A stretch of DNA of 64,000 nucleotides from Burkholderiales bacterium (GTDB lineage: Bacteria; Pseudomonadota; Gammaproteobacteria; Burkholderiales; SG8-39), in the NCBI GenBank assembly GCA_035499735.1, contig DATJYC010000043.1, forward strand, positions 15,182-79,181. Direction: 5' to 3'. Below the pieces are notes generated by a model, which saw nothing but the letters and a program-made list of their open reading frames with translations, was not told the origin of the DNA and did no database searches. The translations under genes were made by a program, and so were the position numbers. How positions within the stretch are numbered: the stretch's first letter is position 1; every line of letters starts with the position of its first letter. Positions 43,358-53,830 of this stretch are shown in pieces.

Positions 43358-43480
43358 TCAGAGTCCGGCTTGCGAGTGCCAGGTCCGGTCGCGGAGCAGG
43401 CACTTCAGGGACAGCATGCCGCCCCACGCGAGAAAAGCCACGACAGCAATATGGATCACAAGAGTCAGCAGATTCGTCAT
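43358..43480 (-). CDS. 40-aa single-TM small protein, not in the ORF track
   Basis: MTNLLTLVIHIAVVAFLAWGGMLSLKCLLRDRTWHSQAGL; GGGAGG RBS; ATG 10 bp after the upstream stop. Confidence 0.62.
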   Translation of the reverse strand: MTNLLTLVIHIAVVAFLAWGGMLSLKCLLRDRTWHSQAGL

Positions 43481-43490
43481 GTTCGCCTCC

Positions 43491-43694
43491 CTAGTAGTAC
43501 ATCACCGGTTCCGGAACGATCTCCCTGGCCTGGTTCTCGATCCGGGCCGGAAGGTAGTCGCTCACGGCGATGGCGGCTGCGGCCGATTCCTCGGTGCCCG
43601 CCTGCGCCGGCATCAGCAGGATGGCGACCGCGCAGATCACGACCGCCAGCAGCGTCAGCGTGAACATGCCGGGCTTCGTTTCGCGGTTGCTCAT
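43491..43694 (-). CDS. 67-aa secreted peptide, paralog 1
   Basis: GAGGAGA RBS, signal/TM segment ending AQA, C-terminal DYLPARIENQAREIVPEPVMYY; homologous to 53451-53711. Confidence 0.75.
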   Translation of the reverse strand: MSNRETKPGMFTLTLLAVVICAVAILLMPAQAGTEESAAAAIAVSDYLPARIENQAREIVPEPVMYY

Positions 43695-43866
43695 GTTGGG
43701 TCTCCTCTCGCTTCGCGGACCGGCGGAAATCGCCCGTCCGATGGAGACCACTCTAGGATTGCGGCTTCAGGGAATCCCCGCCGTCCGGCACTGAGGGGTT
43801 GTGCCGCAAGCCACAAACGGCCGCGGCGCGCGAAGCCCGTCACGGCGGTTTTGTGCCAAACGCACA
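43695..43866 (-). promoter_or_regulatory. Promoter/leader of peptide paralog 1
   Basis: -10 TAGAGT (43750-43755), leader hairpin 43716-43740, TGTGC-N6-CCACA (43800-43815) and TGTGC-N5-GCACA (43852-43866). Confidence 0.55.
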
Positions 43867-43895
43867 AAACCCCGGGAAGCGGAGGAAGCCGGGTC

Positions 43896-44555
43896 TTACC
43901 AGTGCGCCGGGAGGCGCTTGTGGACGCGGATCTGCTTGGCGTCGACCGAGATGTAGCCGCCCGCTGTGAGGTCCTTGACGATGCGGTTCACCATCTCGCG
44001 CGAGCCGCCGATGCGCTCGGCGATGTCCGACTGGGTCAGGCGCTCGGGGACGATGCGCGCACCGTCCTGATCGACCGCGCTCTCGTCGATGAACTTGGCG
44101 AAGCGTCCGTAGACGTCCTTGAGCGCCAGGTCGCGGACCTGCTTGACGAGGCTCCGCGTCTTGGCGATCAGCATGTGGATCAGGTGGCGCGCGAACAGGG
44201 GGTTCTTCGCGAGGAGCTGCTCGATCTCGCTCATCGGGATAACGAAGCAGCGGCAGGGCTCGAGCGCCATCACCGACGCCGAGCGCGGGCCCCCGTCGAG
44301 CACGAGCTCGCCGAAGTAGCTGCCCTCGCGCATGGTGGAGAGCACCACTTCCTTGCCGTCCTCGTCGCTCACGTAGACCTTGACGCGCCCGGCAAGCAGG
44401 ACATAGAGCGAGTCGGTCTCGTCGCCCTCGGTGATGATCACCGCGTTCTTGGGGTAGGAGCGCGCCGTGCCGTGCGGGGCGAGGTCCTTGAGCGCGTCCT
44501 CGCCCAGGGTGGCGAGCGGTCCGATGCCCATCGATACGGCCTGTGACAGCGACAT
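43896..44555 (-). CDS. Crp/Fnr family transcriptional regulator
   Basis: cNMP-binding domain (GSYFGEL...PRSASV) and HTH (LTQSDIAERIGGSREMVNR). No Fnr Cys cluster. Confidence 0.93.
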   Translation of the reverse strand: MSLSQAVSMGIGPLATLGEDALKDLAPHGTARSYPKNAVIITEGDETDSLYVLLAGRVKVYVSDEDGKEVVLSTMREGSYFGELVLDGGPRSASVMALEPCRCFVIPMSEIEQLLAKNPLFARHLIHMLIAKTRSLVKQVRDLALKDVYGRFAKFIDESAVDQDGARIVPERLTQSDIAERIGGSREMVNRIVKDLTAGGYISVDAKQIRVHKRLPAHW

Positions 44556-53450: not shown

Positions 53451-53711
53451 TCAGTTGTACATCATCGGCGCGGCGTCTTCGTAGCTGGCCGCTTCCTGCT
53501 TCGGGAAGGTCTTCGCCAGGCCGACGTCGCTGTACTCGTAGACCTGGGGCACGATGTCCTTCGCCTGGTTGACGATCTGCTCGGGCAGGTACTCGGTCGA
53601 GGCGCTGAAGGAGGCGTTGCTCGCGGAAACCGGCGCGAAGGCCAGGAGGGCGAGGATGCCGCAGAGCGCGACCGCGGCGGTGATGGGGGCCACGTTGCTG
53701 ATGTTCTTCAT
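53451..53711 (-). CDS. 86-aa secreted peptide, paralog 2
   Basis: GAGGAGA RBS, signal peptide, EYLPEQIVNQAKDIVP core and a second degenerate core ending APMMYN. Confidence 0.78.
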   Translation of the reverse strand: MKNISNVAPITAAVALCGILALLAFAPVSASNASFSASTEYLPEQIVNQAKDIVPQVYEYSDVGLAKTFPKQEAASYEDAAPMMYN

Positions 53712-53830
53712 TGTGTTTCTCCTCTCGCTTTCAGGCTCGCGGAAATCGCTCGCCCAACGGTTTCCACTTTAGGCCTCCGCTCTCCCGGATTCGCCGTCGC
53801 GCGACGCAGGAATTCTGTGACGTACGCACA
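53712..53830 (-). promoter_or_regulatory. Promoter/leader of peptide paralog 2
   Basis: -10 TAAAGT (53766-53771), leader hairpin 53733-53755 and TGTGA-N5-GCACA (53816-53830). Confidence 0.55.

Follow-up and report, generated by a model that had tools for sequence, protein, structure and literature searches.

Fold-back inhibition in IS10 and IS50 depends on two arms of a repeat: one arm covers the RBS, the other lies just upstream of the element's own transcription start, and transcripts that enter from outside fold and are silenced. It was reportedly described by Davis, Simons and Kleckner in 1985 and is said to have been reviewed by Mahillon and Chandler in 1998. In IS200, a stem-loop in the tnpA 5′ UTR directly sequesters the SD and blocks 30S binding. 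That structure is part of the native transcript and acts with an antisense RNA and Hfq (PMC4513863). As far as PMC3997798 recounts the work on ompA and papA, these mRNAs carry stabilising stem-loops at their 5′ terminus (Emory, Bouvet and Belasco 1992; Bricker and Belasco 1999).

The window, that is, the whole stretch of 64,000 nucleotides that was analysed, carries two paralogous genes for small secreted peptides on its minus strand (Table 1). Two PQQ-dehydrogenase units and a TonB-dependent receptor lie between them. The first-pass annotation had reported in both leaders a hairpin with an identical AUUUC loop and different lower stems; minus-strand reading and ViennaRNA folds agreed with its positions and structure. 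This hairpin, here called P2, consists of a 5-bp lower stem, a G·G mismatch, a 4-bp upper stem and the loop in paralog 1, and of a 4-bp lower stem, a GA/GA internal loop, a 3-bp upper stem and the loop in paralog 2; the purine mismatch reported for both leaders was thus present. P2 was the minimum-energy fold of each leader, with −16.6 kcal/mol in paralog 1 (z −3.75, 0 of 200 shuffles as good) and −10.6 kcal/mol in paralog 2 (z −1.97, 7 of 200 shuffles as good). Both hairpins sit between a CCTA(G/A)AGTGG block and the RBS of a small signal-peptide gene, and alignment reproduced this block on the 5′ side and AAGCGAGAGGAGA on the 3′ side of both. The full motif, loop plus RBS block, had exact matches at these two leaders only in the 3.7-Mb genome. 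Across the family, the AAGCGAG block after the hairpin is a variable linker, and the SD alone is conserved. Comparison with Rfam, which the annotation had proposed, gave no family for the leader hairpin at either setting: Rfam 15 at gathering thresholds had 0 matches in the window, and permissive filters on positions 43600-43900 gave only a chance match to isrA in coding sequence, with 15 bits against the 51 needed.

P2 is only the inner stem. Most copies add an outer stem, P1, that is able to bury the RBS. In most copies, the 9 nt directly 5′ of P2, GUGGUCUCC, are exactly complementary, read in reverse, to GGAGACCAC, a block made up of the SD and the spacer before the ATG. In paralog 1, P1 comprises 7-8 bp, and its fold together with P2 had an energy of −27.8 kcal/mol. 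The complementarity of the P1 5′ strand to the SD makes an inverted repeat whose downstream arm lies over the RBS. This is not so in paralog 2, which forms no P1 because the 9 nt after its −10 box, GUGGAAACC, are not complementary to the SD. When 71 peptide leaders were folded from the first G, nearly all formed P1 around P2 (mean z −3.8; energies of P1 and P2 together from −20 to −40 kcal/mol). Leaders of the L017 type, which have a different promoter, kept P2 and showed no pairing with the SD, that is, no P1. No clean correlation was found between the presence of P1 and the orientation of the upstream gene; one P1-less leader may have a co-oriented upstream gene. In paralog 2 and its relative L163, positions 53759-53767 (GUGGAAA.., minus strand) can pair with the loop and 3′ arm of P2 (UUUCCGC, 53739-53745). 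This alternative pairing, a fold of read-through RNA with −15.0 kcal/mol, may be due to chance.

Table 1. Features of the two peptide loci, with positions in the window.
Feature	Position	Strand	Details
Paralog 1, small secreted peptide gene	43491..43694	−	67 aa; start codon 43694
Paralog 2, peptide gene	53451..53711	−	86 aa, two core repeats; start codon 53711
40-aa ORF	43358-43480	−	10 nt after the paralog 1 stop; own GGAGG
Crp/Fnr-family regulator gene	43896-44555	−	cNMP-binding and Crp HTH domains
Upstream promoter region, paralog 1	43778..43866	−	two TGTG..CACA dyad units, 43866-43839 and 43815-43787
GACGGCGG element, paralog 1 promoter	43785-43778	−	
Predicted −10 TAGAGT, paralog 1	43750..43755	−	family pattern TAnAGT; from information profile and fixed spacing
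P1 5′ strand, anti-SD GUGGUCUCC, paralog 1	43743..43751	−	covers the discriminator and the final 2 nt of the −10 box
Predicted transcription start, paralog 1	A43742	−	2 nt before P2; from promoter geometry
P2 hairpin, paralog 1	43716..43740	−	25 nt; CGGAC-G-GGCG-AUUUC-CGCC-G-GUCCG
P1 3′ strand, paralog 1	43698..43705	−	SD GGAGA and CC(C); 3-4 nt before the ATG at 43694
Promoter, paralog 2	53791..53830	−	TGTG..CACA dyad 53830-53816; third half-site 53808-53803
GACGGCGA element, paralog 2 promoter	53798-53791	−	19 nt before the −10
Predicted −10 TAAAGT, paralog 2	53766..53771	−	predicted start G53758
P2 hairpin, paralog 2	53733..53755	−	23 nt; GGGC-GA-GCG-AUUUC-CGC-GA-GCCU
SD GGAGA, paralog 2	53722-53718	−	

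Further leaders were collected through scans with the proteins, and the collection is thus unbiased toward the RNA element. The scans gave 16 further genome loci, all in MAGs of uncultured soil Burkholderiales, and 80 loci in soil metagenomes. Two of the 77 candidate leaders were false positives. The strict upper-stem pattern was present in 64 of the 77, and every one of the 75 genuine distinct peptide-gene leaders carried the element. The collection of homologous leaders, a check named in the first-pass annotation, therefore came out in favour of its hairpin. The 75 leaders have a common layout: the hairpin is preceded by a −10-like box and a 9-nt block, and a variable linker rich in A and C joins it to the SD. 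Conservation of the leader is far above chance.

The peptides themselves share the core G-Y-[FL]-P-x-Q-[FI]-V-N-Q-A-K-E-I-E-P-M-P-E-M-Y-Y. They are built from a Sec-type signal peptide, a spacer rich in Ala, Ser and Thr, one or two Y-[FL]-P..NQAKEIEP cores and an aromatic C-terminus (MYY, ATF or MYS). The family was found in 11 of the 14 sampled genomes of the genus and was absent from 186 genomes of 33 other genera in the same taxonomic family. Among the genomes searched, it is thus confined to genus g1 (loci L004-L113), and it has no Pfam family. The 40-aa ORF behind paralog 1 is a conserved small membrane protein with the motif LVAF[FL]AWGG.LSL, and in a relative one RNA contig spans both this ORF and the peptide gene.

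P2 was present in about 100 distinct leaders, from genomes of the genus, soil metagenomes and a second genus, g14. Within the genus, its upper stem and loop were the best-conserved part: the loop was AUUUC in 65 of 98 leaders, its first base was always A, and the closing G-C pair was kept in 94 of 98. The internal loop varied (1x1, 2x2, 2x1, 1x2 or 0x0). The lower stem was compensated, as in GGAC/GUCC, GAGC/GCUC and GGCC/GGCC, with GGAC/GCCC as an A·C intermediate. The claim that pairing is kept despite differing lower stems was therefore confirmed across leaders. The identical AUUUC loop held for both paralogs and for the majority of genus leaders just given, but not for g14, where the loop was AGUUU, AUCGC, AAUGA, AAGUC or a 7-nt loop and the cassette was otherwise kept. 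The AUUUC loop is a genus-level trait, and since the g14 loops differ, P2 is most simply a structural hairpin. Loop deletions and tetraloops occurred within the genus as well (L043, L101). In one clade that is abundant in soil metagenomes (L052, L063, L064), the 5′ arm of the upper stem had changed from GGCG to CCCG without compensation, with loop and 3′ arm intact, and P2 had shrunk to the lower stem and 2 bp. This is the sole group hinting that sequence, not pairing, is kept.

Compensatory change was assessed in leader sets of increasing breadth. In 14 genomic leaders, covariation was not significant (2 double changes; 115 of 500 shuffles were as good), and in 71 peptide leaders it was marginal. 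Significance required the inclusion of leaders from further gene families and from the second genus: in 104 leaders from all gene families and both genera, an alignment fitted to the covariance model and thus biased toward the structure, 89% of the cells paired and 14 of 18 pairs had double changes. Such pairs numbered 4.4 ± 1.6 in shuffled controls, with 0 of 500 shuffles reaching 14, and 4-7 in slid registers. Covariation, which had been named as a check of the hairpin, was thus significant for P1 and P2 taken together in the broad set, though not in the set of 14. RNAalifold on a MAFFT alignment returned a meaningless 3-pair consensus, because indels in the internal loop and the linker break column consistency, and was replaced by single-sequence folds and model-based alignment. 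A pseudoknot between loop and linker (UUUC with GAAA) was rejected, as inspection of the leaders gave no consistent complementarity or covariation.

The compensatory changes in the 104 leaders fell on all 9 pairs of P1 and on 5 of the 9 pairs of P2. Fully compensated variants of P1 included GUGCUCUCC/GGAGAGCAC, GUGCCCUCC/GGAGGGCAC and GUAGCCUCC with GGAGGCU, and such variants occurred in g14 too. On the sense strand, P1 cells had 41 G·U against 7 A·C. P1 thus tolerates G·U and not A·C on that strand, which identifies it as a sense-RNA helix and speaks against a cruciform in the DNA. P2 cells had 25 G·U against 34 A·C, that is, no bias of G·U over A·C.

A covariance model of P1 and P2 found 1-6 copies per genome in 27 of the 31 genomes of the genus and in 3 of the 5 genomes of g14; 150 genomes of the order, drawn from 61 further families, gave none. 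Every copy had the same promoter, with TGTG..CACA dyads, GACGGCGA and CTAnAGTG. The hairpin belongs to a portable promoter-leader cassette that precedes genes for small secreted or membrane proteins and is shared by two genera of uncultured Burkholderiales from soil. It was indeed present in both peptide genes, as annotated, but it is not peculiar to them: the cassette precedes at least five families of small genes, among them a ~60-aa family, the small membrane protein, another 60-aa membrane protein, DUF2917 proteins and variant peptides. In g14, it stands before other small proteins and not before the peptide family. Homologues of the 40-aa ORF stand alone behind their own cassette in other genomes and in g14 (L151, L154, L179). 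DUF2917 proteins (PF11142, E 2e-12 for L161) are cassette-driven at L161, L157 and L160 in genomes of genus g1, which ties this domain to the same regulon.

The genome studied here has a third, diverged copy of the cassette on another contig, found with the covariance model (L144; G000:C24:100256-100313, minus strand). It precedes a 59-aa protein of the ~60-aa uncharacterised family, with the C-terminus R-V-S-H-A and no Pfam match. A strong intrinsic terminator lies directly upstream of this copy and is conserved in four relatives. Searches of the same genome with promoter-only patterns returned the three known cassettes and chance matches, and no clear promoter without the leader. One match, G033, upstream of a DUF736-like gene, was without the promoter and was discarded as a false positive.

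The CCTA(G/A)AGTGG block had been annotated as containing the −10 box. This is supported by the T-A-n-A-G-T information profile, which is −10-like with a variable third position, and by the rigid 19-nt spacing to the upstream element: the spacing GACGGCGA-19-TAnAGT was exact in 72 of 81 leaders, and CACA-17-GACGGCGA in 72 of 80. No canonical −35 was found at these promoters, which fits a promoter dependent on activation by the adjacent Crp/Fnr-family regulator, and the TGTG..CACA dyads are probably the sites of that protein. TGTGnC half-sites recur about 11 bp apart in alternating orientation, as one unit in paralog 2 and as two units about 52 bp apart in paralog 1, and GACGGCGA lies at the −35 position, 3′ of the half-site array. 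The dyads fall around −65 and −54 and a degenerate site lies at about −43, a geometry unlike that of textbook class I or class II promoters. Candidate σ54 or ECF promoters, or a start further upstream, were also considered, and inspection gave no suitable elements.

A start 7-8 nt past the hexamer would fall on the base directly after the 5′ strand of P1. This base was a purine in 95 of 98 leaders, and P2 began 2 nt later in 93. From these spacings we tentatively place the transcription start at the conserved purine that follows the anti-SD, with TAnAGT as the −10. When RNA was folded from the predicted start, P2 was 5′-terminal and the RBS was open. Two soil metatranscriptome runs contained low-depth contigs of relatives only, none of which fixes a 5′ end. 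One contig of a relative crosses the intergenic region, from the 3′ end of the regulator gene through the leader into the peptide gene, which is a weak hint of read-through with possible DNA carry-over.

We tentatively regard an mRNA that begins with the hairpin, combined with insulation against read-through, as the best reading of these data. The cassette would drive genes for small secreted and membrane proteins under a Crp/Fnr-type activator, with RNA polymerase starting at the conserved purine 2 nt before P2. If TAnAGT is the −10 and the start is at this purine, the native mRNA begins with the GC-rich P2 and is without the anti-SD. By analogy with ompA and papA, the 5′-terminal P2 would shield the 5′ end from pyrophosphate removal and from 5′-end-dependent RNase E; an unstructured A/C-rich linker and a free, strong SD would follow. 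The anti-SD, 9 nt between the −10 and the start, would be present only in RNA entering from upstream, for example by read-through from the regulator gene. In such RNA, the anti-SD would pair with the SD block, with P2 as a clamp, and the peptide would therefore stay untranslated. The logic would be that of fold-back inhibition in IS10 and IS50, here placed within the promoter of a chromosomal regulon. Three observations count against this reading: the unusual geometry of the regulator dyads, the lack of a G·U bias in P2, and the P1-less leader whose upstream gene may be co-oriented.

The gene arrangement bears on insulation in both directions. The regulator gene is commonly co-oriented upstream with a weak terminator; the terminator-like site after it has 5 pairs only. 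In favour of insulation, paralog 2, whose upstream gene is divergent, keeps P2 without P1, and so do the L017-type leaders with their different promoter. Against it, copies at the ~60-aa family keep a covarying P1 despite a strong intrinsic terminator just upstream, and L049, whose upstream gene is divergent, keeps P1 as well, so that insulation seems unnecessary in those copies. That P1 is maintained so strongly and over such a long range would be easier to understand if it lay within the native mRNA.

That consideration leads to the main rival reading, possible though on the whole less likely, in which the leader is a translational switch in the native mRNA. Transcription would start upstream of GUGG, perhaps from a second promoter, and every mRNA would carry P1 and be silent until P1 was opened by an sRNA or an RNA-binding protein that docks on the linker or on P2, by RNase removal of the 5′ strand, by temperature or by a small ligand. 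P2 would be a clamp or a recognition module, and the A/C-rich linker a ribosome standby site. The switch would account for the covariation of P1, which is stronger than that of P2 and reaches all of its pairs, for the wobble bias of the sense strand, for the great stability of P1 with P2 (−25 to −35 kcal/mol), and for the retention of P1 both across two genera and behind an upstream terminator; the IS200 tnpA stem-loop, which sequesters the SD in its native transcript, would be a precedent (PMC4513863). The promoter speaks against it: there is no promoter-like element upstream from which to start before GUGG, and the sole −10-like element, TAnAGT, shares its last two bases with P1. In addition, no trans factor or ligand pocket is apparent, since few conserved positions are unpaired and the loop is not conserved in g14; paralog 2 and the L017-type leaders work without P1; and a GC-rich P1 of 9-12 bp is too stable for a simple thermometer.

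In its full form, this reading would make the leader of P1 and P2 an undescribed riboregulator of native mRNA that silences a regulon of small secreted and membrane peptides until a factor or ligand opens the anti-SD helix. We consider this form rather doubtful. If true, it would add a second, post-transcriptional gate atop a Crp/Fnr-type promoter, and the riboregulated peptides would be encoded beside putatively lanthanide-type PQQ dehydrogenases.

The first-pass annotation had proposed a cis-regulatory RNA motif or a protein-binding hairpin. A conserved cis-acting hairpin of the leader RNA is supported by its conservation, by compensatory changes and by asymmetric indels of the internal loop, while the idea of a loop-specific protein site was weakened because the loop is not conserved in g14. 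We therefore consider it improbable that P2 is a sequence-specific site for a protein or sRNA, at which an A-N-U-U-C loop on a GCG/CGC stem would control translation or decay across the regulon. The predominance of AUUUC and of the closing G-C within the genus would fit such a site, as would the L052/L063/L064 clade, in which loop and 3′ arm persist though the 5′ arm lost its pairing. It fits less well that g14 keeps the cassette with other loops, that loops were deleted or turned into tetraloops in L043 and L101, that no GGA is present for CsrA-type binding, and that no candidate gene for an RNA-binding protein lies in synteny. Least likely is a DNA element, in which the inverted repeat from +3 to +27, a near-perfect GC-rich palindrome just 3′ of the predicted start, the classic position of a repressor, would be a dimeric-repressor operator or a cruciform with an incidental RNA fold: P2 does lack a bias of G·U over A·C, but indels in the internal loop make the arms asymmetric and alter half-site spacing, and their tolerance argues against a dimeric operator, the compensated changes of the lower stem preserve pairing and not a recognition sequence, and the enclosing P1 is clearly RNA.

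We came across no previous description of either the outer helix or the cassette. The leader is a covariation-supported RNA motif without an Rfam family, and together with its promoter it marks a regulon whose members are small, uncharacterised proteins, secreted or in the membrane, of soil Burkholderiales that are abundant but uncultured. If transcription starts where the promoter predicts, the cassette would show how a chromosomal gene can be insulated against translation of read-through RNA, with the anti-SD inside the discriminator, and would offer a useful compact design for tight expression; to our knowledge, insulation by an anti-SD is otherwise known from insertion sequences. If the start lies upstream instead, the cassette would be a new translational switch. 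Either way, the covariance model provides a handle for members of the regulon, among them the two peptide genes on either side of the PQQ-dehydrogenase island.

Several described leader classes were compared with the element. ROSE and fourU thermometers share with it an upstream anti-SD that pairs with the SD and helices that enclose a hairpin, as do the expression platforms of small riboswitches. There was no Rfam match to a thermometer, no ROSE G-bulge and no fourU tract; the UCUCC anti-SD lies in P1, which at 9-12 bp and GC-rich is far too stable to melt as one. With respect to riboswitches, the conserved unpaired positions were the loop, which is lost in g14, and the 2-nt junction only, and no ligand-pocket nucleotides were conserved. 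The loops, AUUUC and its variants, never contained GGA, unlike CsrA/RsmA hairpins. An intrinsic terminator or attenuator was rejected as well: P2 is followed by the A/C-rich linker and no U tract, and a terminator scan made no call.

The element appears to work like known leader devices, namely, a 5′ stabiliser hairpin, SD sequestration and fold-back inhibition. With the ompA and papA leaders, as they are presented in PMC3997798, it shares a GC-rich hairpin within about 2 nt of the 5′ end, here a predicted one, followed by an open RBS, and genes that are expected to be strongly expressed once induced. The stem of an ompA-type stabiliser begins about 0-4 unpaired nt from the primary 5′ end; counted from the predicted purine, this junction was 2 nt in 93 of 98 leaders. 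Unlike those hairpins, P2 is conserved in sequence across a regulon, and the anti-SD beside it has no counterpart in the leaders of ompA and papA as covered there. Like the tnpA leader of IS200, the element has a stem-loop able to sequester the SD; unlike in IS200, no antisense RNA is evident here.

In layout, the element resembles IS10 and IS50, in which, as here, one arm of the repeat lies over the RBS and the other just upstream of the start (here predicted). The setting differs, as there is no transposase or insertion sequence: the downstream genes encode small secreted or membrane proteins and a DUF2917 protein, and they form a chromosomal regulon of small genes. The upstream arm lies within the −10 and discriminator of a promoter predicted to depend on an activator, and an extra inner hairpin stands between the arms. 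What is new is the combination of three traits: the anti-SD forms part of the discriminator in a promoter that depends on an activator, a clamp hairpin separates the arms, and the whole serves as a portable cassette. This combination is taxonomically narrow.
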